This document shows positions 12,273 through 64,000 of a DNA stretch of 64,000 bases, in pieces (the first letter of the stretch is position 1; every line of letters begins with the position of its first letter). Below the pieces are notes generated by a model. That model made no database searches. It saw only the letters and a program-made list of their open reading frames with translations, and had not been told where the DNA came from. The DNA comes from Candidatus Heimdallarchaeum aukensis (GTDB taxonomy: Archaea > Asgardarchaeota > Heimdallarchaeia > Heimdallarchaeales > Heimdallarchaeaceae). The stretch lies in assembly GCA_021513695.1 (NCBI GenBank), contig CP084166.1:96001-160000 (forward strand). The letters run 5' to 3'. A program made the position numbers and the translations under genes.

Positions 12273-12277
12273 TGTAA

Positions 12278-18168: not shown

Positions 18169-18636
18169 CTACTCTTTTGGAAGTAAATATTTAATTTGTA
18201 ATTCATTCATTCTTTGAATGATAAGACTTTGATGCTCCTCTGGAATGTAAAAAACTCCTTTCTTGACCATCTCACTAAGTTCAATTGCTTTTAGATCTTC
18301 AGAAATGTCTTGAATCATTTTTTTAATATCTCTCTTCCAGACTTTTGGATGGAAACCTCCTACAATAAAGTATGTTTTAGAATCGTCAAAATAAAATTTA
18401 AATTGCTCCATTTGGATATTATAAAGTTTTGTTCCCAGTTCTCTTGCAAAAACAACTATTGCTGCACTAAAACCCGAAAAAAGTATTTCGTCAACATTTG
18501 TGTTGACATAAGATTTGTGGAAAAGAACCATTCCACTTTGTTCTATAACAGAAAGCTGAGTTATCGGATTCTTGATGTAAGGTCTTCCTCTTCTTTGATG
18601 TTTTTTAGCCTTCTGATTATCTTTCATCAAAATCAC
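18169..18636 (-). CDS. Roadblock/LC7 (MglB-like) domain protein with a basic N-terminal extension
   Basis: VIEQSGMVLFHKSY...DEILFSGFSAAIVVFARELGTKLYNIQMEQFKFYFDDSKTYFIVGGFH matches the beta-alpha-beta-beta pattern of the other roadblock domains in this window. The N-terminus is KAKKHQRRGRPYIKNP. Confidence 0.5.
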   Translation of the reverse strand: MILMKDNQKAKKHQRRGRPYIKNPITQLSVIEQSGMVLFHKSYVNTNVDEILFSGFSAAIVVFARELGTKLYNIQMEQFKFYFDDSKTYFIVGGFHPKVWKRDIKKMIQDISEDLKAIELSEMVKKGVFYIPEEHQSLIIQRMNELQIKYLLPKE

Positions 18637-22285: not shown

Positions 22286-24304
22286 TTATTTATTAAATCC
22301 TGTATACTCCAGAATCTCTTTGATATTCTTTTCATAAAATTGTGGTTTTACTGGTGCTCTCGGTATTTCTTTTATTCTTTCAGCAAGAGAAAGTGTCCAA
22401 ATTCTTATTTCTGAACTCATTTCAGAAGCAATAACAGCAATAATTCCGTTTTTTATGGCTTGCAAACTAATTGTAAAGTCTTCATAGAAAACATCCTTTA
22501 ATCTACGAATTTCTTTATCTCCAGTGATACTTTCTGCAAGTTGATTAATGGCCATTAGTAATCCCGAAAGTAAAATGTCATTAGCCTTCAGCTTTTCTTT
22601 TAGGTTAGAATAAACAGGGACTCCACTTTCGCTAATGACAAGTACTCCTAAAATCTCTGTCTCATGGTTTTTTGAACTTTCGACTTTAAGTGATAGAAGA
22701 GACTTGAATTGAGGAAGAATATAGTCGATTACATTTTGTTTTTTTATTTGTAATGTACCTGTTTTTTCAGAAAGACGGATATTTTTTTCTACTTCATCTA
22801 TATCTTTCTTAAGCGCATCTAGTTCTATTTCTTCACCTATCTTTCTGGCTTCTAGCAATAAATTAAACGCTGTCTCTGTATCTCCGTCTATCGCAACCAA
22901 AACCGCATTCACAAGATAACTTACTGCTAAGAGCTGATTATGCTTATATTCTACAGCTAATTGTTTGACTGTTTCACAATAGTTAAGTGCTAAATTAAGG
23001 TTTTCTTGAGTTTCAAGTAGTCTATAATATATTAAATAAGCTACAGCTAACTGAATGTTAGAATAGAGTATCAATTCTGTATCGTTAATGAGAGAAGCGT
23101 TTTCAAGTGCTGAATGAAGAAAGGAAATTGCACTAGTTAAGTTGTGTTGAAGCATTTCTAAGAACCCTCTGAGATAATCAACTCTAATATTAATCGAAGG
23201 AACTTCAAGTTCTCTCGCTAGACTTTTTAGTTCTTTTAAATATCTCTTAGCTTCTGCTATTTTTTCCACTCTTAAATAGTAATGAACTAGTTCAAATAAA
23301 ATGAATGCTTTGTGCATCGATTTTTCATTTTTCTGTATTTCATATGCAGCCAAAAATGATTCTTCAGCTCTATTATCTCCCAAAAGAAAATAGAGATTTC
23401 CAATTTCAGTGAGATAAAGATAAGGCCATTTTCCTGTGCTCTTTTTGTAAAGATTTATAGCTTTTTCCATCATATCTTTAGCTTTTTTTATTTTTCCTTC
23501 AACTGCTAATACTTCTGCTAAATTTCCAGTTGCGATAGATAATCTATAGTTATCATTGAATTGGCTATGGATTTCAATGAGTTTCTCAAAACATTCTATA
23601 GCTTCTTTAGTTTTACCAAAATAACTGTAAATGCTTCCTTTTACATTTAGGAATGTTGTTTTGCTTTTATAGGATCCATACCTTTCTATATAAGGGCTGA
23701 TAAATGAAAACTCCTTTTCATAATTTATATCTACCCCAGCGTGAAGTAACCACCATATAATATTATGAAACGCTTCGTGAAGATGGTGGTGTTCAATTAT
23801 TTCTTCTGACTTTGTTATTCTCTCTTTAACTATTTTTAAAATAGGTTTAATTTTATCTATTTCACCTTGTTGTCCATGAACCCATGATTGTATGTTGTAA
23901 ATTGCTGCTTGTATCTCGTTTGTTATCTTTTTCTTTTTTCGAATCTCTTTTTCTTGAGCATCAATTTCTCTTACTATCTTTGAATAATTTTGGGGGTTCT
24001 CTTGAAAATAGAGACTAAATAAGGAAACAAAAGGGTCATCAACTTTTTCGAGTGTTTTGATAAGCTCTTCTGTAGCCCGCATTTTTTGGGTCAGATAGCA
24101 GGTAAGTGTAGCTAAAGTAACTATTTGCTGGTTGTTTGAAGGGATAGTTTTCTCTTTTTCCAAAAGAATTTTCAATGCAGAAAAAGATCCTCTTTGAAGT
24201 TTCTCATTAGGATTAGGTGAACTCTGCTTTTTTACTTCATTTACAACAAGTTCTCTACTTTCTTCATCTAACCTTTTGAGCATTTCTTCGTATATTAATT
24301 GCAT
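22286..24304 (-). CDS. TPR/alpha-solenoid repeat protein with a C-terminal roadblock/LC7-like domain
   Basis: Repeated about 34-aa helical hairpins occur through the middle. The C-terminus reads ILGVLVISESGVPVYSNL...DILLSGLLMAINQLAESITGDKEIRRLKDVFYEDFTISLQAIKNGIIAVIAS, which is the roadblock pattern. Confidence 0.55.
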   Translation of the reverse strand: MQLIYEEMLKRLDEESRELVVNEVKKQSSPNPNEKLQRGSFSALKILLEKEKTIPSNNQQIVTLATLTCYLTQKMRATEELIKTLEKVDDPFVSLFSLYFQENPQNYSKIVREIDAQEKEIRKKKKITNEIQAAIYNIQSWVHGQQGEIDKIKPILKIVKERITKSEEIIEHHHLHEAFHNIIWWLLHAGVDINYEKEFSFISPYIERYGSYKSKTTFLNVKGSIYSYFGKTKEAIECFEKLIEIHSQFNDNYRLSIATGNLAEVLAVEGKIKKAKDMMEKAINLYKKSTGKWPYLYLTEIGNLYFLLGDNRAEESFLAAYEIQKNEKSMHKAFILFELVHYYLRVEKIAEAKRYLKELKSLARELEVPSINIRVDYLRGFLEMLQHNLTSAISFLHSALENASLINDTELILYSNIQLAVAYLIYYRLLETQENLNLALNYCETVKQLAVEYKHNQLLAVSYLVNAVLVAIDGDTETAFNLLLEARKIGEEIELDALKKDIDEVEKNIRLSEKTGTLQIKKQNVIDYILPQFKSLLSLKVESSKNHETEILGVLVISESGVPVYSNLKEKLKANDILLSGLLMAINQLAESITGDKEIRRLKDVFYEDFTISLQAIKNGIIAVIASEMSSEIRIWTLSLAERIKEIPRAPVKPQFYEKNIKEILEYTGFNK

Positions 24305-39579: not shown

Positions 39580-41333
39580 TAAAAGTGATACAAGCTGATG
39601 ATTTATTAAAAGTATATTATGACCCTATTACTGAATACAAAGTTGCTGCTTTAAGAGGGTTATCTCTTGATATTAAAGAAGGTCAGTTAGTTAGTATAAT
39701 AGGCCCTTCTGGTTCAGGTAAAACAACCTTAATTAACATTTTAGCCGGACTTGATGTTCCTACAGGTGGAAGAGTAATTGTTAAGGGTCAACAATTAGAT
39801 AAAATGACAGAAAGAGAAAGAAGAGAGTTTAGGTATTATAATATTGGTTTAATTAATCAGTTTATAAGCCAGAACTTGTTTCCAAGACTCACTGTAATAG
39901 AAAATCTGATGATACCTAAACGTATGTTTTGTCTTCCTCATGAAACAGCTAAAAAAGAAGTAGAAGAGTTACTCGAACTTTTGAGATTAAAGCATATAGC
40001 AAAGAATAATGTAGAAAAAATATCTGGAGGAGAAGCAATTCGGTTGTCTCTTGGAGTAGCCTTAGCAAAGAATCCTGATATTTTGTTGTGTGACGAACCT
40101 ACAGGTCAATTAGACAATATGCATACTAAAGAAGTAGTTGAAACTATTAAAGATGTAAATATTACCATGGGTAAAACAATACTTGTAGTTACCCACGATA
40201 TTCGCTTTAGGACTGTTTTTGAACGAAGTTTCATCATTCGTGATGGCCGTCTTGCTGGAATTAGTGTGGATATTAATAGGAATCAACTAGAATTTCTTAT
40301 GGAATCTTCTGAAATGAAGAGATCTTATGTAGACCCTTCTAATTTCGCTAGAATTCCAGATGAAATAAAACGCAGTTTAGGCATTAAAGACACTGTTGAA
40401 TATGATCTTCATCCTTCGAAAAAGATTGGTTTAATTTGGAATCCTGATTTGATAACTAGAGAAGATATTTTCCACATATTAAACAACCCAGAAGAAGAGT
40501 ATGAAGAGACAGTAGATCAAATAAGCTATGAAGATGTAGAACCTATTCTCTCTCGAAGTTTTGTACCTCCTGAAAAAGAAGAACCTATTATTAAAATAAG
40601 TAATTTGAAGAAAGGATATCCTTCTCCAGCTGGATATAATCTTGTACTAAAGGGTATTAACTTATCAATTAATAAAGGAGATTTTGTTTTTATTTCTGGT
40701 CCCAGTGGAGTAGGTAAGACTACGCTCTTTAATTGTATTTCAGGATTAGATAAGATTGATGATGGACATGTAGAAATAATGGGTTTTGATATCAAAAACC
40801 AACCAGAACCTCTTATTTCTGATTTTAGATTAAAGCACATATCTTATATCACTCAGCACAATAACCTTTTTGAACCGCTATTAGTTGAAGATAACCTTTT
40901 CTTACCTTATTTGTTTTTAGGAGAGAAGATAGATATAGATTATGCCAAAAAAATAATGAAAGAATGCTTTATTGATCATAAAATTAAGTCTTACCCTGAT
41001 GAACTTTCTGCAGGAGAAAAACAACGTGCAGCACTAGCTACTAGTTTGGCAAGGAAAACATCTATCCTTATTGCTGATGAACCCACTGCTAATCTTAATT
41101 CTGAACTTGCCCGTTCAATAATTAATCTTTTTATGGATATATCTAAGCTAGAGCAAAAAACAGTTATTATCTGTTCTCATGATTTGAGTTTATTACGTCC
41201 AGGATTTAGACATATTCGTCTATCAGATGGTCAGATAGCGGAAGATTATCGTGTAACAAAAGAGCAATTACAAGAGATTATTACAGAATACCTTAGCATT
41301 CAAAAGAACAAAAAAAATGAATCTATTACGTAA
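39576..41333 (+). CDS. Tandem-NBD ABC ATPase, paralog 2
   Basis: NBD1 has GPSGSGKTTL, ISGGEAIR, LCDEPTGQLD and VVTHDIRF. NBD2 has GPSGVGKTTL, LSAGEKQRAALATSL, LIADEPTANLN and CSHDLSL. The conserved linker is IPDEIKRSLGIKDTVEYDLHPSKKIGLIWNPD. The start is GTG 39576, overlapping the permease stop (GTGA), or GTG 39585. Confidence 0.85.
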   Translation: MIKVIQADDLLKVYYDPITEYKVAALRGLSLDIKEGQLVSIIGPSGSGKTTLINILAGLDVPTGGRVIVKGQQLDKMTERERREFRYYNIGLINQFISQNLFPRLTVIENLMIPKRMFCLPHETAKKEVEELLELLRLKHIAKNNVEKISGGEAIRLSLGVALAKNPDILLCDEPTGQLDNMHTKEVVETIKDVNITMGKTILVVTHDIRFRTVFERSFIIRDGRLAGISVDINRNQLEFLMESSEMKRSYVDPSNFARIPDEIKRSLGIKDTVEYDLHPSKKIGLIWNPDLITREDIFHILNNPEEEYEETVDQISYEDVEPILSRSFVPPEKEEPIIKISNLKKGYPSPAGYNLVLKGINLSINKGDFVFISGPSGVGKTTLFNCISGLDKIDDGHVEIMGFDIKNQPEPLISDFRLKHISYITQHNNLFEPLLVEDNLFLPYLFLGEKIDIDYAKKIMKECFIDHKIKSYPDELSAGEKQRAALATSLARKTSILIADEPTANLNSELARSIINLFMDISKLEQKTVIICSHDLSLLRPGFRHIRLSDGQIAEDYRVTKEQLQEIITEYLSIQKNKKNESIT

Positions 41334-49112: not shown

Positions 49113-51200
49113 TTAAACACTCATTGTGAGGGTTTCATTAAATTGAGGGACAACTAGATCTTTGTGTTTAATAGTAATATTCTCTGGAGTATGAACCATT
49201 ATTTTCTTCCCATTAAGTTCTGAAATAAACTTATCCAAATTTCTAGGAGTAGTGTGTCCACTTATTTGTAGATTGTAAATTTGCTGAGAGTATTGATTTA
49301 AAGCTACAGGATGATTTGTTTTTAATGAGTAGCCTAAAGTTTCAGGGGCTTGATAACCACAGATTATTACTCCAACATCATCATTATCTCTTGTTTCATC
49401 TAAGAGCAATCTAGAGGTTCCTCCTTGAAGCATTCCATTTCCTGCAATTACAATATCTCCATCTTCAAATTCGTCAGCGTTCATACTTTTTAGTAATGTA
49501 TGATCTCCTGAAATACCCATTAATTTTGTTATTTCACTAGCTAACCCAACAATTTTTACATTGTGTTCTTTTGTTAAACGTAGTTTTTCTAAAAGTGTAT
49601 ACATTTCCTGTGCTCTTCCAACAGAAAAAGCTGGGATAATTACCTTTTTATTCTGTTTAACGGCATTTAAAACAGTTGTTTCATTATCAACCTTTTTTAG
49701 ATTTCTATTATAGTATGTTCCATCAAAAATGGTTACATCGGCATCGGTAGGAAATTCAGCTCCTTTGAAAAGATAACTTTTTTCTACTTTAAAATCTCCA
49801 GTAAACAAAATTCTCTTTCCGAATATTTCAATTAAATATCCATAACTTCCAAATACATGAGAAGAAGGAATAGGAGTAATTAAGAACTCAGGAGAAATCT
49901 CTATAGATTTTTTAGGTTTAAGTGGATTAAATCTATTAAAGAAATGAATTAATGTTGATTCACTTTTTATTGCTTTTAGGTATGGTGATAATAACTTTTC
50001 ATCAGGTATTCCTTTTAACATTGTTGAAGTGTTGAAAAGTAACTTTTCTCCTATTACTTTTGTATTTACACTTCCATACCATCTTTTTTCTTCATCAATA
50101 TTTACTAAATAAGGTAGAGCTCCAATATGATCTAAATGAGCATGGGTCACAAGTATTGCTTTCACAGTTCTCAAAGAAGGATGCCATCGAGGAATAGAAT
50201 AGTTGCTAACACTCATCCCATAATCTAGTAAAATGGCATCGTTATTATGTTGAATAAGTATAGCCATATTTCCAATTCCTCCACCACCTAAAAATGTAAT
50301 TCGTACTTTTTGGGCTAGTTTATGGCAAGAATAAGCTTTTTTCGAAGCAAATTCTTTAATTAACTTTGGAGGAGTATTTGCTAATTCTTCTAATTTTACT
50401 ATTCTAGGTTCTACTTTTTCTCTTATTTTCTCAAAGAATGGTTTGTATGTAATGGGGACAATTGGGTATTTACTTTTATTTAAAAGATTTTCAATCTTTT
50501 TTTGAACTTCTGGAATTGATGTTTTTTTATCCAGAGAAAGTTCTGAAATAATAAATTCACTATATCTTAAATCTAGTTCAGATAGTAGCTTATAATCTAT
50601 AAAAAAATCTAGAAATTCTAGCACTTCTGTAGGAAAATTTGGAATAAATTCTTCTAAATAGTTAGATTTTTCTTGTAATAGCTTAACCATTTTTTCTAAT
50701 TTTTCTGCTAATTCCTGAGTTTTTTGGTTGATGGTAAATGGTACGTTTAGTTTTTCTAAAATAGCGATGAATTCTGAAAAAGATCTAGGTTTTATACCCA
50801 TATCTCTACAAAAGTTTAGATACTGAAAGTAATCAATCTCTCTTTTTTTTACTTTCTTGGTTGAATAAATTAGAAAGAACAATATTATATTTTCATGTTT
50901 CAGACTATCTGTAAGCTGTAAATGTTGAAAAACCTCCTTTACAAGTTTAATATCGATTAAATCCTTTGCATACAAAGTAAATAAAACAGCAAGAAATTGT
51001 TCTCTTTGTTCTATGTCAATAGGTGTATTCCATGAAAGATTGAAGATATCTCCTATTGTTTTTGGGATTTCTTCAATTTCTCCTTTTTCTAGTATTCTAC
51101 TAAAATGTTTAACTTGCGTAATTAACTCTTCTTCTATTTGGGGTTCCTTTTCACCATTTAACAAAAATTCAATAATATTTTTTCCTGCTTGAATACTCAT
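49113..51200 (-). CDS. Metallo-beta-lactamase-fold / beta-CASP-like hydrolase (putative nuclease) with a roughly 290-aa N-terminal domain of unknown function
   Basis: The motifs are GGGGIGNMAIL, ILVTHAHLDHIGALPYL (HxHxDH) and a C-terminal ISGHTTPRNL (beta-CASP motif C-like). Confidence 0.55.
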   Translation of the reverse strand: MSIQAGKNIIEFLLNGEKEPQIEEELITQVKHFSRILEKGEIEEIPKTIGDIFNLSWNTPIDIEQREQFLAVLFTLYAKDLIDIKLVKEVFQHLQLTDSLKHENIILFFLIYSTKKVKKREIDYFQYLNFCRDMGIKPRSFSEFIAILEKLNVPFTINQKTQELAEKLEKMVKLLQEKSNYLEEFIPNFPTEVLEFLDFFIDYKLLSELDLRYSEFIISELSLDKKTSIPEVQKKIENLLNKSKYPIVPITYKPFFEKIREKVEPRIVKLEELANTPPKLIKEFASKKAYSCHKLAQKVRITFLGGGGIGNMAILIQHNNDAILLDYGMSVSNYSIPRWHPSLRTVKAILVTHAHLDHIGALPYLVNIDEEKRWYGSVNTKVIGEKLLFNTSTMLKGIPDEKLLSPYLKAIKSESTLIHFFNRFNPLKPKKSIEISPEFLITPIPSSHVFGSYGYLIEIFGKRILFTGDFKVEKSYLFKGAEFPTDADVTIFDGTYYNRNLKKVDNETTVLNAVKQNKKVIIPAFSVGRAQEMYTLLEKLRLTKEHNVKIVGLASEITKLMGISGDHTLLKSMNADEFEDGDIVIAGNGMLQGGTSRLLLDETRDNDDVGVIICGYQAPETLGYSLKTNHPVALNQYSQQIYNLQISGHTTPRNLDKFISELNGKKIMVHTPENITIKHKDLVVPQFNETLTMSV

Positions 51201-51291: not shown

Positions 51292-52254
51292 TCATTTTTC
51301 TTCTTCATCATCATTTAACAAGCTACTGAAGGCTGCTCTTAATTCATTTTGAAGTGATTCTTTCATTTGCTTTGTAGATTTTTTAGGAGTAGCTGGTGTA
51401 GGCTCTGATACTGGGCTTACTTCATCTGATTCTTCCATTCGTTGAGATCTTCTTTGTTGAGCAGCTTTAACTTCTGAAAGTAAAGCTTGTTGTGGAGAAA
51501 GAGGTCTTGATGCTTGTGCAGCTTGTTCTCTCTCTTTTTTATGAGCATCAGGATCAACTTTCTTTAATTTTGCTTTTGCTTCCAGAATTGCTGAAGCTGT
51601 TGGTCCACCTAATGGTCCCACACCTCCCCCACCCATAGGTCCTGGGCCAGGAGCTGGTGATTGTTGCACTGGAGCTTTTTGTAATTTTGCTTTTGCTTCC
51701 AGAATTGCTGAAGCTGTTGGTCCACCTAATGGTCCCACACCTCCCCCACCCATAGGTCCTGGGCTAGGTGCTGGTGATTGTTGCACTGGAGCTTTTTGTA
51801 AAGATTTGGCAGCATTAGCTATCTCGCTAGCAAATCCTGGAGAACCTGGCCCTGCTCCTAGATTAGGAGCTGGTGCAGGAGCTCCACTTAAATTTGGTGT
51901 TGGAGCTGGTCCCCCTAGATTAGGCGCAGAAGTCGCTCCACCCCCTATATTTGGCGCTGGAGCTGGTCCAGAACTCAATTTAGGTGCAGAAGGTATCGAG
52001 GGACTTGGAGTACTTCCACCTATACTTGGAGCACTAGGCATTCCCATTCCTCCTCCAGGTGCTCCACCTAATTTATTCTCCAAAGCTGTTATTCGCGCAT
52101 CTAATTCGTTAATAGCATCTTCAATTCTTTCTGTAGATTTGATCATAATACTTCCAAAGTTTTCAAGAAGTCTAGTTAATTTTGCAATCGCAGTTTTCGT
52201 AGGGGAAGAACCTTCAGATAATAAATTGTCTAGGTACTCATCAATTGACATCAA
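51292..52254 (-). CDS. Low-complexity Pro/Gly/Ala-rich protein with an N-terminal coiled coil, two 39-aa repeats each ending in a WH2-like AILEAKAKL(Q/K)K(A/V) motif, and an acidic C-terminal tail (LLNDDEEEK)
   Basis: The translation contains LQKAPVQQSPAPSPGPMGGGGVGPLGGPTASAILEAKAK twice. Its N-terminus is IDEYLDNLL...ITALENKLGG. Confidence 0.5.
   Translation of the reverse strand: MMSIDEYLDNLLSEGSSPTKTAIAKLTRLLENFGSIMIKSTERIEDAINELDARITALENKLGGAPGGGMGMPSAPSIGGSTPSPSIPSAPKLSSGPAPAPNIGGGATSAPNLGGPAPTPNLSGAPAPAPNLGAGPGSPGFASEIANAAKSLQKAPVQQSPAPSPGPMGGGGVGPLGGPTASAILEAKAKLQKAPVQQSPAPGPGPMGGGGVGPLGGPTASAILEAKAKLKKVDPDAHKKEREQAAQASRPLSPQQALLSEVKAAQQRRSQRMEESDEVSPVSEPTPATPKKSTKQMKESLQNELRAAFSSLLNDDEEEK
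51566..51799 (-). repeat. Coding tandem repeat of 2 x 117 bp (about 97% identical)
   Basis: Copy 1 is 51566-51682 and copy 2 is 51683-51799. They differ at gccaggagc vs gctaggtgc. Confidence 0.85.
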
Positions 52255-52335: not shown

Positions 52336-53364
52336 TTAGAACGCCTCTGAAAGAACTTTAACTACTTTTTCAATATCTTCTCTGCTTATATTGAAGTGAG
52401 TTACAAAACGAATCAATTGCTCTCCCATTTGTGTTACTAAAACCCCTTGTTTTTCTAGTTTTTTGCTTAAGGTATTTGCATTATATTCTGAGTCTGAAAG
52501 ATCAATAATTACAATGTTTGTATCCACAGGTTTGACAATTATATTTTCCTTTTCTCGAAGAACTTTTTCAATCATTTTAGCGTGATCATGATCTTCTTTT
52601 AATCTATCAATCATATGGTTAAGGGCATATATTCCTGGTGCTGCTATAACTCCTGCCTGTCTCATTCCCCCTCCTACTCTTTTTCTGTTTTTTCTGGCTT
52701 TTTCAATAAACTCTTCTGTTCCCACGATTATAGAACCAATTGGACAAGCAAGTCCTTTACTTAAACAAATCTGTATTGAATCTGCATGTTCTACTAGTTT
52801 TGCTGGAGAAATATCTAACGCTACTGAAGCGTTAAATAATCTAGCTCCATCAATATGTACAGGAACTTCATAATCATGTGCTAGTTTTGCTATTTCGTCC
52901 ATATTCGATTTAGGAATAACTCTTCCTCCCCCTCTGTTGTGAGTATTTTCAATACATACTAATTTAGGATCTGCGTAATGAACATTATATGGTCTAGAAA
53001 GAATTGCTTCAATATCTTTAGGATCCATTAACCCATTGTCTCCTCTTATTAAATAAGGTAAAGCTCCAACTATTGATGCAATTCCACCAGCTTCATACAA
53101 ATATATATGGCTCTCTGCTTCTAAAATTATTCCTTCTCCTTTATTTAGATGAGTCATCTCTGAAACTAGATTTCCTTGTGTACCACTTGTAACTAGTAAG
53201 CCTGCTTCTTTACCTAGTATTTTTGCTGCTAAAACCTCTAATTCTTGTACTGTAGGGTCTTCTCTCCAAACATCATCGCCTAATTTAGCTGTTAAAATTG
53301 TTTCTAACATCTCTTTTGGAGGTAAAGTTAATGTATCAGAACGCAAATCAATTACTTTTTTCAT
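52336..53364 (-). CDS. ltaE: Low-specificity L-threonine aldolase (PLP-dependent beta-eliminating lyase family)
   Basis: The N-terminus is VIDLRSDTLTLPPKEML. The size and overall PLP-fold pattern fit the family. Confidence 0.7.
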   Translation of the reverse strand: MKKVIDLRSDTLTLPPKEMLETILTAKLGDDVWREDPTVQELEVLAAKILGKEAGLLVTSGTQGNLVSEMTHLNKGEGIILEAESHIYLYEAGGIASIVGALPYLIRGDNGLMDPKDIEAILSRPYNVHYADPKLVCIENTHNRGGGRVIPKSNMDEIAKLAHDYEVPVHIDGARLFNASVALDISPAKLVEHADSIQICLSKGLACPIGSIIVGTEEFIEKARKNRKRVGGGMRQAGVIAAPGIYALNHMIDRLKEDHDHAKMIEKVLREKENIIVKPVDTNIVIIDLSDSEYNANTLSKKLEKQGVLVTQMGEQLIRFVTHFNISREDIEKVVKVLSEAF

Positions 53365-55031: not shown

Positions 55032-56774
55032 TTATTTGTCATTGATTTTTACTTGTAAGAAATACTCAATTATTTCTTTCAAATCTTTCTTTGTTATACG
55101 TTTATCTGACTGAATTCCACCTTTTTCTAAGACTATGTGTCTCATTCCTGGTCTTAACAAACTAAGATCATGCGAGCAAATAATTACTGTTGTTTGTAAT
55201 TTTTCTGCAACATCCATTAATACATCAATTATGGCTCTTGCCAAATCACTATCTAAATTAGCTGTTGGTTCATCTCCTATTAGAATAGGCGTTTTTCTTG
55301 TTAATGCAAGTGATAAGGAAGCTCGTTGTTTTTCTCCAGCAGAAAGTTCATCAGGATAAGCTTCTAACTTATGTTTTATTTGACATTCCTCAACCATATT
55401 TAGAGAGTACTCTTCATCATAGTCTAATTTAGAAAACAGATAAGGGACAAGAAGATTATCTTTAACTGTAACAGGTTCAAAGAGGTTATTATGCTGAGTG
55501 ATATAAGCAATGTTCTTTAATCTAAACATTGATGTTTCATATTCATCTTTATCATGAAGTGAAACATTATTGATAATTATTTCTCCTTTATCTGCTTTTA
55601 CAAGTCCTGTAATGCAATTAAAAAGGGTAGTTTTTCCTACTCCACTGGGCCCAGTAATCATTACGAAATCTCCTTTTTTAACTTCTAAGTTAATGTTTTT
55701 TATTACTTGATTATAACCTGCTGGAGAATGATATCCTTTGGAAACTCCTTTTAATTGCAAAATATTTTCTCTACTCTCTATGAAGTTGAATTTTCTGCTA
55801 ATAATTTTTTCAATTTCTTCATAAGAAATTTCTCGAGATTCTTTAATCGCTTCGTCAACTGGTTTATTCAAAATCTTGTATATTTCTTCTCTATTTACTA
55901 TATCAGGATTCCAAAATAAACCAAGAGATCCAGCAGGATGAGCGTCAAATTCTACTACATCATAAAGCTTTGTTTTCATCTTTATTTGATCAGGTATTCT
56001 AAGAAGGCTATTTTTATCTAAGTAAGCCCGATTATTTGTAGAAGAACTTGTCATAAATTCAAGTTTATCTTTTTCCATATCTTGACTTACTCCTACTAAT
56101 CTCCCATCTCTAATGATAAAGCTATGTTTGAATACATTTCTAAAGCGGATATCGTGAGTCACAACAACAATAGTTTTACCCGTGTTCTCGTTAATATCTT
56201 TTATAGTATTAATTACTTCTTTAGTATGCTCAGTATCTAATTGACCTGTAGGCTCGTCAAGAAGTAGAAATTTAGGATTTTTAGCTAAGGCTGCACCTAA
56301 AGATAAACGCATAGCCTCTCCACCAGAAATGCGAGAAACGAGATTATTTCGCACATGATATAAGTTTAACAGTTCTAAAATTTCCTTGACTTCTCTTCTG
56401 GCTTGCTCTCTTGGAATGTAAAATAATTTTTTGTGTATCATAAGATTCTTTTCAACAGAGAGATTTGAGAATAAGTTATCGCTAATATTTTGATTGATCA
56501 ACCCAATGTATCTGAATCTGAACTCTCTTAGTTGTTTTTGAGACATTTTTTCTAAATGATGGTTGTCAATAATGACTGATCCTCCAGTAATATCTTCTAA
56601 GCCAGATAAAATCTTGATTAATGTGGTTTTTCCTGCTCCAGAAGGACCAACTATACTTACAAGATCACCTTTTTCTACATATAAATCTAATCCTCTTAAA
56701 GCAGCAACTTTATAATCAGAATGAGGGTCGAAATAAATTTTAAATAAATCAATACATTGTATCATTTTTATCAC
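55032..56774 (-). CDS. Tandem-NBD ABC ATPase, paralog 3
   Basis: NBD1 has GPSGAGKTTL, ISGGEAMR, LLDEPTGQLD and VVTHDIRF. NBD2 has GPSGVGKTTL, LSAGEKQRASLSLAL, LIGDEPTANLD and CSHDLSL. The start is GTG 56774 (GTGA overlap) or ATG 56765. Confidence 0.85.
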   Translation of the reverse strand: MIKMIQCIDLFKIYFDPHSDYKVAALRGLDLYVEKGDLVSIVGPSGAGKTTLIKILSGLEDITGGSVIIDNHHLEKMSQKQLREFRFRYIGLINQNISDNLFSNLSVEKNLMIHKKLFYIPREQARREVKEILELLNLYHVRNNLVSRISGGEAMRLSLGAALAKNPKFLLLDEPTGQLDTEHTKEVINTIKDINENTGKTIVVVTHDIRFRNVFKHSFIIRDGRLVGVSQDMEKDKLEFMTSSSTNNRAYLDKNSLLRIPDQIKMKTKLYDVVEFDAHPAGSLGLFWNPDIVNREEIYKILNKPVDEAIKESREISYEEIEKIISRKFNFIESRENILQLKGVSKGYHSPAGYNQVIKNINLEVKKGDFVMITGPSGVGKTTLFNCITGLVKADKGEIIINNVSLHDKDEYETSMFRLKNIAYITQHNNLFEPVTVKDNLLVPYLFSKLDYDEEYSLNMVEECQIKHKLEAYPDELSAGEKQRASLSLALTRKTPILIGDEPTANLDSDLARAIIDVLMDVAEKLQTTVIICSHDLSLLRPGMRHIVLEKGGIQSDKRITKKDLKEIIEYFLQVKINDK

Positions 56775-59700
56775 TCCAAATTCATAGGTTGATATCTAGC
56801 AAATTGCATTTTCATTGTCATGTAGAATATAGAGAAAAACATAACAGGAATAACTAGAAAAATTATCACCGCAATAACTGGTGGAAACTGAATAGGATTA
56901 GGCAATATCTCTTGCCTTAGGCTTCTTAACACTCTTCGTATAATTTCAGTTATTGTAAAACCTACTGCTGTACCACTGATTATTCCAGGAAGAATTCCAA
57001 TCATGAATAATTCAAAGGAACTCATTTGAATTATAAGTTTGTTAGGTATACCCATCTTCTTAAGAATGTCATGCTTACCCATTCTTCTTTGCAATATCTT
57101 AAGAGGATTACTCATACTTGTAAATACAATAGAGATTATGCAAATTAATAATGAAAAAACAAATATTGAAACTATCGAAGCATAAAAGGGAAGATTGGTA
57201 CGGTAAATTTCTTGTTCTTCTTCAACTATGTTAATGATTTCTAGATTGTATTTCTCTTCTAAACTTGAAGAAAATTGAACTATATCCGTTTTTTCTTCAA
57301 CATTTATTAATAATCTATAACCAAATACTCCAAAAACGGTTAAACTCTCTTCTATTTTCTCATAATTGCTCTCTGTTAGAACAATCATAGGAGTTCCTCC
57401 CGATTCTCGTGGACCATAAGGATAGATTATGGGGAAATAGTCAAACTCATCTATTATCTTCACTTCTACGTCATCGAATGAGTATTTCATTTCGCTAATA
57501 TCAAAGAAAAACTTGAAGTTGCTAGAAACAATTATCTCTTTATCGTTATCCAGTTGAGGAATAATATCATCCCAATTTTTGTAAAATCTTTCTGAAGGTT
57601 TATACGCTGTATTATAGAAATCCGAAGCTTTTTGAATCACTAAAAGATTTAACTGTCTTCCTCCAAACATTGCGTCAACTTGAGAAACGTTACATATGCC
57701 GATTACTTCGGGAAGAATTTTAATTTCATCACTGATACTGGAATTAACGTTATTGTAATTGCTTATATACATATCAGCTCCTGCCATAAAGTAAGAATCT
57801 TTTATTATCCCATTCTGCATTGTTAGAGGAGCAGCTATTGCAGGAACAGCAATTCCTACCAAAAGTAAATAGGTCAAGAAAATATCATTAAACAATGAAA
57901 GATCTGTTTTTACTTCAACTAATGAGAAAGTGAATATATTCTTCTTAATTTTCCACAAAGTTTTGCTTAAAACTGCCATAATAAAAGAGTGAAGATCTTT
58001 TAAAATTAGTCCTAAACCGAATAAAGATATCATTACTCCAATTCCAATAATATACACGAAAATGTTTATCAATTGGTTATCTGAAGAAGAAAGATTTTCG
58101 CTGAAAGTTAGATATAGTTTTAGTCCTCCGTAAATTATTCCTCCTCCAACAGCAATAATAATGAAGTTGCCGATTTTCACCTTTTTAAGAAAAGAAACAA
58201 ATTTGTTATAATCTCTTATTTGCTCCTTCTTTATTTTTGCCATTCTTATTGTTAAAGGTAAAGTAATAATTATTAAACCAAAGAACGAAATTGTGAAAAT
58301 TAAAGGAAGATTCTTTAACGAAGGCATTGTAGAACTTAGATTGAAAGAGACAAATCTATCTAATTTTAATAAAATGGGAATAATCAGTATTGCTTCTCCT
58401 AAACCTAAAAAGGTTGCAATAAGTGATTCTACAAATTTCATTACTGTGTTCAGATAAACTATTTTTCCAGTTGACAACCCTTTGGAACGGAGAATTTTAA
58501 TTTCTTCATCAAAACTTGTAGCAAATAAGGCATTTGTTTCAAAAATCAAGAATAGTGCAAGGTAAAGGACAGGTATTGATAATAAAACAATTAGAAATTG
58601 AGTAGAGGAATAGGAAGGAACTAAACTTTGCAATACTAGTTTTAATTCAGTTGAAATAACCCAAGAACCACCTAAATCAAATTTTACAGGATGATCGTAA
58701 CTTGGTTGTAAAATGTCAAAATCATTTATTAGTTTTCCAATATTTTTAGAATTAACTAAAGAAAAATCATAGAAAAATTGAACTATACCATCAAATTTCA
58801 GATGTTGAACTGGCATAGTTTTTAAACTTGACAGATAAAAATCATTGAAAGTTATTGCACCGATGTATTGTGAAATCATTTCTATGAGATCATATGATAA
58901 TCCATAATCTCTACTCATCTTAAATAATGAAGGTTCTGTTGGTTTTTCGTAAATCCCTACAATAGTCATGTTCACTCTTTCTTTTAAACCTCCAACAGAG
59001 ACATCTGCACCAACAAAGACAATAGTGTCGTTTATTGTTTTATTGAAAGCTGTCGCTGTAGTTTGATCGATTATAACTTCATTGATTTTATCAGGTAACC
59101 TACCTGAAACTAGAATTCTTCCCAAAATATCCTTATAATTAGTAGATAAGGAATAATATGATTCTACGCTCTGAACTGTACTCTCAGTATCCTTCTTAAA
59201 TAGAATTCGCATTTGCATTGAATAATCAGAATCAATAATTATATCCTTCAAAACTTCAGTTTTAAAAGCGATAGTTGAAAGAATCTCGTTCATAACAGCA
59301 GAAGAAAAATTCTCGTAAAAAGGTGAGTATTCATTTACTCTCCCCCATCTCGCGGAAAGAACATTATGCATTCTCGAAAACGTAGCTGAAGCTTTTTCAT
59401 CTTCTTCTAAATGAGCATCTTCTAAATATTGTTGTATCATCATGTTTTGTTTATATGAAAAGAGTGAAGAAGAAGAGAAAACAATCATTGCCAAAATTGA
59501 TAAGCCTAGTATTGTTATTATAGCTCTCTTTTTGTTTGATCTCCATAAATCGAAAGGAAGACTCAATGAACTTACAATAAAAACCCATAGATTGAGAAAT
59601 ACTAAAACAAATTTACTTTTTCCAGTTTTTATAGGTCTAAATAAAAACCTAAATAGTTTTTTTCCTTGATTTACTATTTTTTTGTAAAATATGGCTATAA

Positions 59701-61195
59701 ATAGTAAGAGAATTGAGATAGCTATTGTAAATTCAATCCAATGTATTCTAAAAACATATTGAAAGAAGTTTACTAAAGTTAGATCGTAAATAACAGGTCT
59801 TATAATACTGTTGAAAGATAAATTACTATTTGAATAAATTAAAACAGAAAAGACATTAGGTTCTACTATAACTTTGTTTTCTAGTTGAGTATCATGAAAT
59901 CTCTGTGTTCTACTAACTAAAAAAGTAGTAGGAGATTGAAAATTGATATGAGTCGAGTCGAAAACCGTAATGTTTGAAGTGAAAGGAATATCAATAAATT
60001 GTTGAGTAATATTTTTTCCATTATATCTTAAAATAGTAAATTCAGTAATTAAATCAGCCTTAGAATTACTTGAATTAAGAGGTAAGTGGGGATTAGGGTT
60101 GATTAAGAATGTTATTGACGAATCAAAAGAGTAGTGATACAAGTCATCATATGAATACATTCCCAATTGAAATTCACTAAAGTTTTCAAAAGAAAGACTT
60201 TCGTTCAATTTAAAATTATGAGTATAGAATGTTGATCCTTTAATTAGAGCCAAGTTTAGTGTAGTTTGATTAAATACCGATAAATAAACATCATAATCAG
60301 TATTGAAAAGAAGATAGTTACTTAAATAAGGGTCATCGTTTATGATATATATTCCAACTAGCCTTGTTGGGAAAAACATATACTTGTACAATGCAACTAA
60401 TTTTCCATCAACAAGTAGCAATGTTTGAATGCCATTATATTCTAAATCTGTAAACCAATTTTCAGTGCTTGAAGTTCCATTTAGAAAAACTGTTAATTTT
60501 TTAAATTTAGTCTTTGGGTGCTCATCCATTGCCGATTCAAACATTGGTTCTGCAAACAGCAAATAGAAAGAGTTTTCTATAAACTGAACATTATAGATAA
60601 AATAATTTCCAAAAAAACTTGAATGGTAAATCAAGAAATTACTTTTGTTTTGTTCTGATTCCCAAACATACATTTCAATATTGAATTGCCCAAAGTTTCC
60701 ATGATATGAATAGAACAATACTATTTTGTTATCAATTCTAAAGGTGTCAAAAATTGTTCCTGGACTTAAATCTGTTTTAATCTTTGATATATTTCCTTCA
60801 AACAAATGAAAGATAGTGAAGGATTGATTTTCTAATTCCATTTTTATGAATAAGTGTAATCTTTCTTGAGTGTCTAACACCGCTCTTGTTTCTAAATCTA
60901 CTATTGTTTCATAAGCTTGAAAATAACCTATAACCTCTTCTTTAACTTCTGGATTTTCAGTTATATCAGCACTTATTAGCAAAGAATTATAATTTAAACT
61001 TAATATAGACGCTATTAAAATAAACACGAAATATTTTTTTTCCATACCAATCTCCCATCGGATATGCCTTTTTTTGAACACTTTAAAATTTTCCTCTGTA
61101 AAAATATTTTTTAAATGAATAAATACTTCAAGAAAAGAATTTATATATTGCAAGTTCTTGTTAAGCAAAATGTCCTCAAAAACCTCTAAAGACAC
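56771..61195 (-). CDS. Giant ABC transporter permease, paralog 3. The likely true start is ATG at 61045 (MEKKYFVFILIASILSLNYNSL, a signal peptide).
   Basis: It has the same architecture as paralogs 1 and 2. It ends YQPMNLE*. The upstream extension to 61195 overlaps the divergent MFS gene, so it is probably not translated. Confidence 0.8.
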   Translation of the reverse strand: MSLEVFEDILLNKNLQYINSFLEVFIHLKNIFTEENFKVFKKRHIRWEIGMEKKYFVFILIASILSLNYNSLLISADITENPEVKEEVIGYFQAYETIVDLETRAVLDTQERLHLFIKMELENQSFTIFHLFEGNISKIKTDLSPGTIFDTFRIDNKIVLFYSYHGNFGQFNIEMYVWESEQNKSNFLIYHSSFFGNYFIYNVQFIENSFYLLFAEPMFESAMDEHPKTKFKKLTVFLNGTSSTENWFTDLEYNGIQTLLLVDGKLVALYKYMFFPTRLVGIYIINDDPYLSNYLLFNTDYDVYLSVFNQTTLNLALIKGSTFYTHNFKLNESLSFENFSEFQLGMYSYDDLYHYSFDSSITFLINPNPHLPLNSSNSKADLITEFTILRYNGKNITQQFIDIPFTSNITVFDSTHINFQSPTTFLVSRTQRFHDTQLENKVIVEPNVFSVLIYSNSNLSFNSIIRPVIYDLTLVNFFQYVFRIHWIEFTIAISILLLFIAIFYKKIVNQGKKLFRFLFRPIKTGKSKFVLVFLNLWVFIVSSLSLPFDLWRSNKKRAIITILGLSILAMIVFSSSSLFSYKQNMMIQQYLEDAHLEEDEKASATFSRMHNVLSARWGRVNEYSPFYENFSSAVMNEILSTIAFKTEVLKDIIIDSDYSMQMRILFKKDTESTVQSVESYYSLSTNYKDILGRILVSGRLPDKINEVIIDQTTATAFNKTINDTIVFVGADVSVGGLKERVNMTIVGIYEKPTEPSLFKMSRDYGLSYDLIEMISQYIGAITFNDFYLSSLKTMPVQHLKFDGIVQFFYDFSLVNSKNIGKLINDFDILQPSYDHPVKFDLGGSWVISTELKLVLQSLVPSYSSTQFLIVLLSIPVLYLALFLIFETNALFATSFDEEIKILRSKGLSTGKIVYLNTVMKFVESLIATFLGLGEAILIIPILLKLDRFVSFNLSSTMPSLKNLPLIFTISFFGLIIITLPLTIRMAKIKKEQIRDYNKFVSFLKKVKIGNFIIIAVGGGIIYGGLKLYLTFSENLSSSDNQLINIFVYIIGIGVMISLFGLGLILKDLHSFIMAVLSKTLWKIKKNIFTFSLVEVKTDLSLFNDIFLTYLLLVGIAVPAIAAPLTMQNGIIKDSYFMAGADMYISNYNNVNSSISDEIKILPEVIGICNVSQVDAMFGGRQLNLLVIQKASDFYNTAYKPSERFYKNWDDIIPQLDNDKEIIVSSNFKFFFDISEMKYSFDDVEVKIIDEFDYFPIIYPYGPRESGGTPMIVLTESNYEKIEESLTVFGVFGYRLLINVEEKTDIVQFSSSLEEKYNLEIINIVEEEQEIYRTNLPFYASIVSIFVFSLLICIISIVFTSMSNPLKILQRRMGKHDILKKMGIPNKLIIQMSSFELFMIGILPGIISGTAVGFTITEIIRRVLRSLRQEILPNPIQFPPVIAVIIFLVIPVMFFSIFYMTMKMQFARYQPMNLE

Positions 61196-62492
61196 AGAAA
61201 AATTAAGAAGTAAACTGAAAGACTTGTTATCAATACCCAGTTCTCTGTTAATAGTTTTTCTGACAACATTGTTAATGAGAGCCAGTTTTTATTTGGCAAT
61301 TGCAATCTTGAATTATCCTCATTATTTAACTCATCTTTCTTCAGTTCAAAAAACATGGATTTTTATTGTTTATCCATTAAGTGAATTATTAACTGTATTA
61401 TTTTTTGGAGTGCTATCTGATAAGATTGGGCGAAAGATTATTTATTACATTGGTCTAGGCACAACTGCGATAGCGATTTTATTATTTTCCTTTGTTTCAG
61501 AATTTGCATTATTATTGGTTGTTTCTTCAATATTGGGAATTGGTGCAGCTGCTCAAGTCGCCTCTACCTTATCTATTGTAGCAGATGAAGCTCCTGAAGA
61601 CAAAAGAGGGCGATTTATGGGTTTTTACGATGCGATGACACTTATAGGTTTAGGTTTAGGATTTGGAGGAGGTTTCCTCATTATGGAAATCTTGTTTGGG
61701 AATGAAGATGTTACGACGATGACTAGTTCCCAGCAAACTGAGTTTTACAAAAGAGTTGCAACAACGAGCGAAGTTCTTTTTGTAATTGCAGCTGTGTTGC
61801 TTTTTATTTCATTAGTAGTAGCAGTGGTATTGTTAAAAGGAAAACAATTTGTAAAATTCGGTAAAGAACAAACAATAAAAGAGAAGGTCAGTTTTATAAT
61901 TAAAGATAAAAATTTACGTTACTTGATGCCTGTTTGGGTACCAATAATCTGTCTTTATGCAATTGTATTGACTAATGCTGAAGAATTAGCTCACACACTG
62001 AACCTACATGACGTCAAACTACTTATCGTTCTTGCAGTTATTTTCGGTTCTATACTGATAGGCTTTCCTCTTAATGGAATATTAAGTGACAAAATAGGAA
62101 GAAAACCTTTTCTGTATATAGGCATGTTCTCTTTTGCCGGATTTGTTACAGTTCTAATAATTGGTGCAGAACAAGCTAAAGTTAACAATCCAAATCTACT
62201 ATTGTATCTATCTCCATTGATGTTTGTTCTAGGTATCGGTTGTGGAGCTTTTCCTCCAGCAGCACTAGCATTGTTAACTGATCTATCTCCAAAAGAAAAT
62301 TATGGGTCAAGTATGGGTGCTTATTCTGTAGTTTATGGAACTGGAATGATTATTGGTCCTCTCTCTGCAGAATATTCACAATCAGTTGGAGGTTTATTTG
62401 GATTAATCATTTTGATTTGGATTCTTTGTGCAATTAGTGTTGTTGGAACATTATTAGTTCCAAAACATCTTTTGAGCAAAGGATCTCATTAG
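61158..62492 (+). CDS. MFS transporter
   Basis: There are 12 predicted TM helices. The MFS loop motif occurs in both halves (LSDKIGRKIIYY and LSDKIGRKPFLY). Confidence 0.8.
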   Translation: MLSKMSSKTSKDTEKLRSKLKDLLSIPSSLLIVFLTTLLMRASFYLAIAILNYPHYLTHLSSVQKTWIFIVYPLSELLTVLFFGVLSDKIGRKIIYYIGLGTTAIAILLFSFVSEFALLLVVSSILGIGAAAQVASTLSIVADEAPEDKRGRFMGFYDAMTLIGLGLGFGGGFLIMEILFGNEDVTTMTSSQQTEFYKRVATTSEVLFVIAAVLLFISLVVAVVLLKGKQFVKFGKEQTIKEKVSFIIKDKNLRYLMPVWVPIICLYAIVLTNAEELAHTLNLHDVKLLIVLAVIFGSILIGFPLNGILSDKIGRKPFLYIGMFSFAGFVTVLIIGAEQAKVNNPNLLLYLSPLMFVLGIGCGAFPPAALALLTDLSPKENYGSSMGAYSVVYGTGMIIGPLSAEYSQSVGGLFGLIILIWILCAISVVGTLLVPKHLLSKGSH

Positions 62493-62533: not shown

Positions 62534-63379
62534 TTATTTACTAAAATAAGCCGATTCTTCATTATTTATTTCTAATAGAATCTTAGCCATTTTTGGGAAT
62601 TCTGTAGGAGCTATTAAGCTAGCATTCTGACACCCAGTATTTACTAATATATAGACAAACAAATCAGAATAGTGCGCAATAACCTCTATATTCCCATTGG
62701 TAAAAGCTATTTTGTTTAAGTTTTCTTTTATTAAGATGGAAAATTTGATTTCGTTTAAAATTTTTAAAAGGTAGGTATGATCTGAATAAAAAATATTTGA
62801 AGTTGTTTTATGAAATAATAACTCATTTGTATATCTATCTAAAATAAAAAGATTATAGGGAGTATTTTCTACATATTTATCTACTCTATTGAAAAAATCT
62901 AGTTTCTTTGCTGAGTCAATGTTTAGATTGTAAATTCTTTCTTCTTCTCTTATTTCATAATCTTTTAGCACATCAAGAATCTGCATGAAGGGTTCTTTAA
63001 AGAGTTTTAAAAAGAAAGTACCATCTCCAAATTCACGATTAATTATCTCTTCATTTTCATAATCACTAAAAGTACTTGAAACTAGAAATCTAAAATTTTC
63101 CACTTCTTTTAAAAACACTCTTTCTCCTTTTTCGAATTCAATTCTTGCTACAAGAAAGAAACGATTATTAAAAAAAGGAATGTAAATCAGTCTTTCATCT
63201 CCCGCAATATCTAGGTAATTAATGGTTTTTCCAGTTAACTCAACTGAGAAGGATTGTAAAGCACTCATTAGAGCACCTATTAAATCAGGGTCGATAGGAA
63301 CAGATTTTCTTATTATCGCGTGATTTATTAGAATACCATCATTTGAAACTAACCACATTTCTTTAATCATTTTTTTCAC
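62534..63379 (-). CDS. Roadblock/LC7 (MglB-like) protein with tandem roadblock-type domains
   Basis: The N-terminal domain is MWLVSNDGILINHAIIRK...DLIGALMSALQSFSVELTGKTINYLDIAGDERLIYIPFFNNRFFLVARIE. The start is adjacent to the stop of the upstream GTPase gene. Confidence 0.6.
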   Translation of the reverse strand: MKKMIKEMWLVSNDGILINHAIIRKSVPIDPDLIGALMSALQSFSVELTGKTINYLDIAGDERLIYIPFFNNRFFLVARIEFEKGERVFLKEVENFRFLVSSTFSDYENEEIINREFGDGTFFLKLFKEPFMQILDVLKDYEIREEERIYNLNIDSAKKLDFFNRVDKYVENTPYNLFILDRYTNELLFHKTTSNIFYSDHTYLLKILNEIKFSILIKENLNKIAFTNGNIEVIAHYSDLFVYILVNTGCQNASLIAPTEFPKMAKILLEINNEESAYFSK

Positions 63380-64000
63380 TTATAGTTTTTTTATATATTC
63401 GATTATAGAATTAAAATTATTATTAGTTAGAGAAGAGTATACAATCAGATTTTTCTGTAAGAACGAAATTTCTTCCAGCTTTTTGCTTATTCTTTCAAAG
63501 TTTTTAGTTGTATTTTTAATATCACTTTTTGTTAAAATAAATGACATTCTAAGTTTATTCTCATCTTCAATTTTCTTCAGAATTGCAAAAATTCTTTCAT
63601 ACAAAGATTCTTTGTAGATAAAGCCATAGTCAAGAACAAAAAAGATCGCATCAAAGTTATTTTCGACTTTTTCATTTAGATAATATGAAATCAAATCCAT
63701 ATTTCCGCCAATTTCTGTAATTTTTAATTTTTTTCCAAGGAAATAAAATTGAGATGTGGAAATTCCGATATTATGAAGTTTAGTTCCCAAAAAAGCATTG
63801 TAATTTAATCTGTGAATAATACTCGATTTTCCACATTTACTAAAACCAATTAGTAGAATGTTGAGTTGTTTATTTTCCTTTCTTGAGATTGAATATTGTA
63901 CTTTGAATTGATTTTTTTGTCCAAAAGTAATTTTGGTAGAATATTGACCTAGAATTGAGCCTGTTGATTCAATTATTTTTCCAAAACCATCAAAAATGCT
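63380..64000 (-). CDS. Protein with a C-terminal small GTPase (Arf/Sar/Rag-like) domain. The ORF is open through the window end, so it is 5'-partial.
   Basis: The P-loop is LLIGFSKCGKSSI. Switch II is ITEIGGN (WDxGGQ-like). The NKxD equivalent is LTKSD. SSL is the SAK equivalent. The 210 bp upstream of the TTG at 63790 translate without a stop (SIFDGFGKIIESTGS...). Confidence 0.6.
   Translation of the reverse strand, partial: SIFDGFGKIIESTGSILGQYSTKITFGQKNQFKVQYSISRKENKQLNILLIGFSKCGKSSIIHRLNYNAFLGTKLHNIGISTSQFYFLGKKLKITEIGGNMDLISYYLNEKVENNFDAIFFVLDYGFIYKESLYERIFAILKKIEDENKLRMSFILTKSDIKNTTKNFERISKKLEEISFLQKNLIVYSSLTNNNFNSIIEYIKKL

Follow-up and report, generated by a model that had tools for sequence, protein, structure and literature searches.

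The window analyzed here is a stretch of 64,000 nucleotides (nt) from contig CP084166.1 of Candidatus Heimdallarchaeum aukensis, positions 96,001 to 160,000. At its far end lie two adjoining genes, both on the minus strand: one encodes a divergent small GTPase and the other a protein, called the partner below, that is read as two roadblock/longin-type domains. An earlier note, made from the letters alone, had described the locus as a putative GTPase-plus-roadblock operon and had guessed at an Asgard source; the source is indeed an Asgard archaeon. The two genes are placed as follows.

63380..64000, minus strand: 3′ part of the GTPase gene, residues 59-264 plus the stop codon; UJG40970.1, annotated 'hypothetical protein'
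62534..63379, minus strand: partner open reading frame (ORF), 281 amino acids (aa); UJG40969.1, annotated 'roadblock/LC7 domain-containing protein'

The GTPase fragment in the window has 206 codons, is open at the window edge and, in translation, ends with a TAA at 63380-63382. Residues 1-58 fall outside the window. A public contig, L001, matches the window fragment exactly and supplies the 5′ end of the gene, giving a protein of 264 aa (259 aa from the annotated GTG) in which about 107 residues precede the P-loop. The protein is thus longer than a bare small GTPase, as the earlier note had expected. Close relatives of UJG40970.1 carry the name 'ADP-ribosylation factor-like protein'. The 281-aa partner ORF begins with a GTG that abuts the GTPase stop directly, so the adjacency reported earlier is confirmed. 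The GenBank start is the ATG at 63368-63370, 9 nt downstream of the GTG, and yields a 278-aa form identical to UJG40969.1 of Candidatus Heimdallarchaeum aukensis.

The GTPase fragment is matched by the Pfam Arf profile with an E value of 5.2e-7 and 29.8 bits (cut-off 22.3). The SRPRB profile gives 25.3 bits (cut-off 25) and Gtr1_RagA gives 25.0 bits (cut-off 22). Since all three lie over their cut-offs, the G domain is no chance match; the margin of Arf over the other two is just 4-5 bits. A search of PDB sequences with a profile of the GTPase orthologs returned nearly all Arf/Arl proteins, the best being Arl1 (E 2.7e-6). AlphaFold2 (AF2) models were made of the GTPase and of the partner as single chains. 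The GTPase model, built on P0004, a cluster representative 92% identical to the H. aukensis protein, has a predicted local distance difference test score (pLDDT) of 80.4 and a predicted template modeling score (pTM) of 0.75. It has a G domain with the usual strand and helix order, i.e., the fold of a Ras-superfamily small GTPase. The G domain sits C-terminal to an extension of about 100 aa, and the protein ends at the last G-domain helix.

The family is narrow. Word-seeded homolog searches returned 3-4 close relatives for each of the two proteins, even with a profile at E 10, and a scan of genome contigs returned H. endolithica alone. About four lineages of the GTPase family are known, all of them Heimdallarchaeaceae or close relatives. 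The identity of the GTPase to reference family sequences is about 15%, too low for a small tree to be trusted. 'Arf/Rag-like' is a fair label on these data, which do not single out one of these groups as the closest. The GTPase is a divergent Arf/Rag-like G protein that is placed in none of the Arf, Rag and MglA families, because the hallmarks of each are missing. MglA-family membership was rejected on the G3 motif, and Rag membership on domain order and G4.

The motif states were read from alignments of four orthologs at 29-43% identity, to one of which a human ARF1 sequence was added. All three motifs on which the earlier note had based its call of a Ras-superfamily G domain, i.e., GFSKCGKS, TEIGGN and TKSD, were located. 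The parts of the GTPase in the window are these.

63863..64000, minus strand: in-window tail of the N-terminal extension, residues 59-104 of about 100 aa; holds the invariant IxDxxGxxxESxG hairpin
63824..63847, minus strand: G1/P-loop GFSKCGKS, residues 110-117; G110, G115 and K116 invariant in the four orthologs
63764..63784, minus strand: switch I TKLHNIG, residues 131-137; T131, H134 and G137 invariant
63701..63715, minus strand: G3/switch II EIGGN (within ITEIGGN), residues 154-158; E154 and G157 invariant
63521..63532, minus strand: G4 TKSD, residues 215-218, the guanine-specificity motif [NT]KxD; T215, K216 and D218 invariant
63428..63436, minus strand: G5 SSL, residues 247-249; SAV and SAI in the remoter orthologs

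The residues held in all four orthologs across the G motifs are G110, G115, K116, T131, E154, G157, T215, K216, D218 and S247. G1 conforms to GxxxxGK[ST], and G4, which reads TKSD or TKND among the orthologs, and G5 answer to [NT]KxD and SA[KL], respectively. Overall identity falls to 29%, yet G1, G4 and G5 do not vary, so that nucleotide binding appears to be under selection. The DxxG motif with its catalytic Gln was not found at G3. Its Asp is replaced by the invariant Glu154 in the four orthologs, and the catalytic Gln position, residue 158, is Asn in three of them (EIGGN) and Asp in the fourth (EISGD). In switch I, Asn135 occupies the position of the Arf Mg-binding Thr, both in the HMM (hidden Markov model) alignment to Arl1 and in the MAFFT alignment with ARF1; the residue is Ser in P0006. 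Four residues upstream lies the invariant Thr131, a candidate alternative G2 residue, in a segment where the AF2 model is unreliable (pLDDT <50, residues 127-133). The earlier note had said that lack of a switch I Thr and of G4 and G5 would count against a G domain. In the Arf register the Thr is replaced, by Asn135 or, in one ortholog, Ser, and G4 and G5 are present, so this check went partly against the call. The kept G1, G4 and G5 point to guanine-nucleotide binding, and the replaced Asp and Gln, together with Asn or Ser at the Arf-register switch I Thr, point to weak or partner-dependent hydrolysis. That is, the GTPase probably binds guanine nucleotide, and it may either depend on its partner for hydrolysis or act as a slow switch.

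In the AF2 model, the N-terminal extension consists of three helices and then four β strands; pLDDT is 85-91 across residues 10-110. Residues I60, D62, G65, E69, S70 and G72 are invariant in the four orthologs. The hairpin that they form resembles strands 1 and 2 of a roadblock domain; the extension lacks the roadblock helix that comes next. The extension was matched neither by Pfam nor by a local HMM, nor by hhalign against roadblock/longin domains.

The partner is accepted, with a caveat as to model quality, as two predicted roadblock/longin-superfamily domains with a helical linker between them.

63056..63370, minus strand: partner domain 1, about 105 aa; beta-beta-alpha-beta-beta-(beta)-alpha; motif KEMWLVSNDGIL...DPDLIGALMSALQSFSVEL
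62915..63055, minus strand: helical linker; AF2 helices at residues 110-118, 122-126 and 128-150, in a low-confidence model
62537..62914, minus strand: partner domain 2, about 126 aa, residues 156-280; alpha-beta-beta-alpha-beta-beta-beta-alpha; AF2 pLDDT about 70 in parts

Domain 1 (residues 4-103) begins with a β strand, which is the longin-type order, and lacks the N-terminal helix of a classical roadblock. The secondary-structure order of domain 2 is that of a classical roadblock. The partner has the five-stranded sheet order of the roadblock/longin fold superfamily and structural similarity to its members: Foldseek, independently, gave E values of 1e-4 to 1e-3 for Mon1, Gtr/Rag, HPS4 and MglB, all of them domains that bind small GTPases. 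The earlier call of roadblock domains is thus upheld by fold searches, by secondary structure and by a purpose-built HMM, and it is not upheld by the Pfam Robl_LC7 profile, whose scores stay under the cut-off (see below). The Robl_LC7 match is limited to residues 5-49, i.e., strand 1, strand 2 and the next helix, and domain 2 has no match to that profile. An hhalign comparison of domain 1 with domain 2 gave no signal of internal duplication (E 0.75).

The linkage of the two genes is conserved. They adjoin, with gaps of 0-22 nt, in H. aukensis, in H. endolithica, in a JGI Heimdallarchaeaceae contig and in GCA_964590855.1, and in five further metagenome-assembled genomes consecutive protein accessions indicate adjacency. 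In GCA_964590855.1 (contig L006), the flanking genes differ: the pair lies between orthologs of window genes 52336-53364 and 49113-51200. Thus, the two genes moved jointly. Both are under purifying selection: when H. aukensis is compared with H. endolithica, the ratio of nonsynonymous to synonymous substitution (dN/dS) comes to 0.14 in the GTPase gene and 0.05 in the partner gene. Ortholog identities are 83/43/29% for the GTPase and 90/59/41% for the partner; the GTPase evolves faster. The pairing proposed in the earlier note holds in its core. The pair is kept in four lineages and the partner has two domains; the GTPase is not of the MglA family.

The two genes are probably a co-transcribed two-gene module. 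A scan for promoters and terminators returned sites no commoner than in shuffled sequence, its consensus being that of bacterial sigma-70, which is uninformative for an archaeon. On the opposite strand, convergent with the pair, lies an MFS transporter gene (61158-62492).

In L006, which represents the most distant lineage, a 328-aa canonical Arf-type GTPase gene (4195-5181) stands directly before the pair. It scores 125 bits with Pfam Arf, has G1 GLENAGKT, G3 DLAGH and G4 NKAD, and carries a C-terminal extension of about 150 aa. No counterpart was found in the 64-kb window.

Relatives of the partner were sought exhaustively with HMMER among 1.8 billion protein representatives. The search added P0022 to the full-length partner orthologs. 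Several other proteins are related to domain 1 only; four of them are stand-alone, with lengths of 126-142 aa, and two are TPR proteins with a C-terminal copy. Another hit, the repetitive protein P0024, was set aside as spurious. None of the domain-1 relatives reaches Pfam Robl_LC7; a few show faint longin matches. Stand-alone domain-1 relatives adjoin Arf/Rag-like GTPase genes in two unrelated metagenomic contexts, often as two tandem paralogs. Tandem paralogs of this kind beside GTPases fit a two-domain partner that is a fused heterodimer.

The contexts just mentioned include L009 2864-3822 and L012 1497-4381, where stand-alone domain-1 relatives lie in operons with short GTPases. These GTPases, which lack a C-terminal roadblock domain, combine an Arf-like G1 and G3 (GLDNxGK, WDFGGQ) with a Rag-like G4 and G5 (HK[FY]D, TS[VI]x). 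Their arrangements resemble a 'split Rag'.

Domain 1 also recurs within the window. An HMM built from the distant domain-1 relatives alone was run on all 220 six-frame ORFs of the window. It matches partner domain 1 at E 6.7e-20 and picks out two other genes, with no other window ORF below E 0.01.

18169..18636, minus strand: stand-alone domain-1 paralog, HMM E 1.4e-12 over residues 31-123; 152 aa as annotated; UJG40942.1, 'hypothetical protein'
22286..24304, minus strand: TPR-repeat protein, 672 aa; TPR_12 E 4e-18; its C-terminal ~90 residues (22385-22648) are weakly domain-1-like

The earlier note had called the first of these a roadblock protein and the second a TPR-roadblock fusion. Neither matches Robl_LC7. 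The first call is borne out in another form, through the domain-1 HMM; the 155-aa product of 18169-18636 has no match in Pfam, NCBIfam or PDB sequences. The fusion is indicated more faintly: the C-terminus of the TPR protein gives E values of 0.0056 and 7e-4 with the domain-1 HMM, 0.019 with Fuz_longin_1, and 0.24 with the Asgard Roadblock3 structure 9jue_D, the last across nearly the full length of 9jue_D. The same architecture, TPR repeats with a C-terminal domain 1, is found in P0025 and P0027. The HMM matches suggest that the three 'roadblock' calls in the window concern one domain family, strand-first in its order. The N-terminus of P0027 (680 aa) reads IALWDEALGP, which resembles the WDxxxGP motif of the human C9orf72 longin domain.

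The TPR protein of the window lacks the N-terminal region of P0027. Tail-to-tail with the domain-1 paralog lies a plus-strand gene for 610 aa (16322-18154), whose Mon2/Sec7/BIG1-like HUS match, at 22.2 bits, is below the 27.3 cut-off and may reflect helical repeats only. Sec7-family proteins are Arf exchange factors.

We propose, as the probable reading, that the products of the gene pair form a complex of a small G protein with its regulator or platform, in which the partner, as a pseudo-heterodimer, would bind the switch face. The GTPase would bind GTP and GDP and switch between them, its intrinsic hydrolysis being weak or unconventional. The two domains of the partner would pack intramolecularly and offer a platform for one GTPase, a platform of the same kind as the MglB dimer, the LAMTOR pairs and the Mon1-Ccz1 longin pair. 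By binding the switch face, the partner would set the location of the GTPase or its nucleotide state, in the latter case as GAP (GTPase-activating protein) or GEF (guanine nucleotide exchange factor). We infer the binding, the stoichiometry and the direction of regulation. A role as GAP or GEF is suggested by analogy, and these data would suit a GAP, a GEF or a scaffold alike.

Several observations weigh against this proposal. The AF2 model of the partner is of low confidence (pLDDT 51, pTM 0.44), because the alignment held only three sequences, and the fold matches rest mainly on secondary-structure order and on the better-modeled domain 2. With Pfam Robl_LC7 (PF03259), the whole partner scores 17.5 bits and domain 1 scores 20.1 bits, against a cut-off of 23. 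A partner profile run against PDB sequences found nothing, and a domain-2 HMM finds the four orthologs and no other sequence relatives. As to linkage, one domain-1 relative, P0023, has no GTPase gene on its short contig. The transcription unit may also extend beyond the pair: 19 nt upstream of it, and on its strand, H. aukensis has a dehydrogenase gene. Finally, the ExxG, the missing Gln and the displaced switch I Thr could mean that GTP hydrolysis has been lost.

Four other readings were weighed. The one that survives best is possible, if tentative. It holds that the two proteins make a split Rag-like assembly, in which the hairpin of the GTPase extension would pair with the partner domains by sheet extension. 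The partner would then be a constitutive subunit for dimerization or anchoring, like the Rag C-terminal domains on Ragulator, and would stay off the nucleotide pocket. The invariance of the IxDxxGxxxESxG hairpin and the confident modeling of the extension suit such a role. So does the company kept by the domain-1 relatives, i.e., GTPases with Rag-like HKxD and TS[IV]x and no C-terminal roadblock domain. The extension, however, lacks the roadblock-defining helix that separates strand 2 from strand 3, and is linked to no roadblock or longin domain by the profile and hhalign comparisons given above. The G domain, too, is without Rag marks, its G4 being TKSD and no domain following it.

The loss of hydrolysis raised above leads to a second reading, which we consider doubtful. 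Here the GTPase would be a pseudo-GTPase scaffold, i.e., a structural subunit, constitutively nucleotide-bound, of a stable complex with the partner that has lost catalysis, and perhaps Mg-dependent switching, and takes part in no GAP/GEF cycle. The invariant Glu in place of the G3 Asp, the change of the catalytic Gln to Asn or Asp, the Asn or Ser at the Arf-register Thr, and the faster divergence of the GTPase than of its partner would all be expected of such a subunit. Against this stands the invariance of G1, G4 and G5 at 29% identity, which argues that nucleotide binding is selected. A Glu at G3 does not preclude GTP hydrolysis in G3E-family GTPases, and the invariant Thr131 could act as the G2 residue. 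MglA-family GTPases, moreover, function without the G3 Asp (PMC4316618).

It is unlikely that the partner acts on its Gln-less Arf/Rag-like GTPase as a GAP with an arginine finger, which would make it a prokaryotic fused counterpart of FLCN-FNIP, GATOR1 and C9orf72-SMCR8. If it did, the GTPase would rely entirely on the partner for hydrolysis, and its invariant ExxG and its Asn/Asp would be the mark of that mechanism. The four orthologs agree at three Arg residues of domain 1, which in the 281-aa form are Arg63, Arg79 and Arg87. In GAP longins of the FLCN/SMCR8/NPRL2 type, the loop that joins strand 1 to strand 2 carries a GP motif (PMC12290439), a motif that partner domain 1 lacks: its loop reads S-N-D-G-I-L, with an invariant Gly and no Pro after it. 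Three distant stand-alone domain-1 relatives carry G-x-P in this loop.

That the two genes are functionally unlinked neighbors is very improbable: adjacency is all that has been observed, and other neighbors, such as the upstream 2-hydroxyacid dehydrogenase gene, are also kept in 3/4 lineages, but that gene is truncated in H. endolithica and absent in L006, whereas the pair persists where its neighborhood changes (L006), its gap is 0-22 nt in every case, and the wider domain-1 family recurs beside small GTPase genes.

Elsewhere in the window lie four paralogous modules. In each, an ABC ATPase gene adjoins a gene whose product is a very large membrane protein, of 1006-1474 aa.

4164-8462, 9252-12272 and 35260-39579, plus strand, and 56771-61195, minus strand: large-protein genes of the modules
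8468-9364, 12278-14065, 39576-41333 and 55032-56774: ABC ATPase genes of the modules

MacB_PCD matches are sub-threshold in two of the large proteins. ABC_tran was confirmed for three of the ATPase genes, and 55032-56774 was assigned through an ABC_tran ortholog in L002. The segments 5501-9350 and 9311-13160 form a direct tandem duplication of 3.8 kb (offset 3810 nt, 99.4% identical). It takes in an ABC ATPase gene and the 3′ part of the giant MacB-like permease gene beside it, and it may have arisen recently or be an assembly artefact. A minus-strand gene for 320 aa (51292-52254) has as its sole match a faint one to CCDC53, a WASH subunit, and may correspond, by position alone, to the Ala/Pro-rich gene, for 300 aa, found after the partner gene in L006.

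The many small GTPases and roadblock/longin proteins of Asgard archaea are thought to prefigure the membrane-traffic and nutrient-signaling switches of eukaryotes, and for almost no Asgard small GTPase is the matching regulator known. A conserved, tightly linked pair offers a definite candidate for such a one-to-one match, open to expression and testing. In the complex proposed here, the fusion of two domains in the partner would hold the ratio at two to one, as is seen for MglB and MglA, and the altered catalytic residues predict hydrolysis that would depend on the partner. Both genes are already in GenBank and the genome is published, and the general picture is unchanged. In the literature searched, no description was found of this GTPase family, nor of its combination of features: a fused partner with two domains, a Gln-less ExxG at G3, and an N-terminal extension of unassigned fold.

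Roadblock/longin domains are platforms for small GTPases (PMC3747258), and small GTPases with such partners are known in Asgard archaea (PMC10933270, PMC8813620), often as fusions or pairs (Tran et al. 2024, PMC10933270). Asgard structures for comparison are PDB 8yl2 (LokiRagO) and 8yqk (a Roadblock-Longin protein). The Heimdallarchaeum GTPase differs from these Asgard GTPases in that its extension is recognizable as neither domain and its G3 and catalytic residues are altered.

MglA-MglB is the bacterial pairing of a Ras-like GTPase with a roadblock-fold GAP, and one MglB dimer binds one MglA asymmetrically (PMC11016934). The G3 of MglA is TVPGQ or GTPGQ, and its group 1 has an Arg beside the G2 Thr (PMC4316618). 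The Heimdallarchaeum G3 is instead ExxG[ND] (TEIGGN), and Thr131 is followed by Lys. Further differences are the 100-aa N-terminal extension and a best profile match to Arf rather than MglA. Whereas MglB is a homodimer, the partner is one chain with two unlike domains.

The Arf family, including the Asgard ArfR/AArf proteins, is the best match of the GTPase in Pfam and among PDB sequences. The spacing from the switch I position to G3 (135 to 154) is 19 residues, as in Arf, and G3 has an Arf-like Gly-Gly. A hallmark of Arf is an amphipathic helix directly before the G domain (10.1101/2024.02.28.582541), and its signature is Leu-Asp at G1 positions 2-3 and Gly at G3 position 3 (PMC11914678). The third-position Gly is present in three of the four orthologs. 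The Leu-Asp is absent, G1 beginning G-F-S, G-E-S or G-E-D, and in place of the amphipathic helix three helices and four strands precede the first strand of the G domain. The Asp, Gln and Thr at the catalytic positions of Arf are all replaced. AArf N-termini are reported to be diverse, some with extra domains (10.1101/2024.02.28.582541; PMC11914678).

Rag/Gtr GTPases have a C-terminal roadblock domain, which the Heimdallarchaeum GTPase lacks, as it also lacks an HKxD motif, its G4 being TKSD. HKxD is the G4 form of RagA/Gtr1. The GTPases beside the stand-alone domain-1 relatives carry HKFD or HKYD, unlike TKSD. At the sequence level, matches to proteins of Rag/Gtr-Ragulator or of the longin-pair regulators are absent. 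At the level of fold, Mon1 and the Rag/Gtr C-terminal domains are the top matches of the partner. In Rag-Ragulator, in the Mon1-Ccz1 GEF and in the FLCN-FNIP, GATOR1 and C9orf72-SMCR8 GAPs, a roadblock/longin pair is the GTPase-binding surface. The GTPase-partner pair is a lineage-specific version of this pairing, which is known from bacteria, Asgard archaea and eukaryotes.

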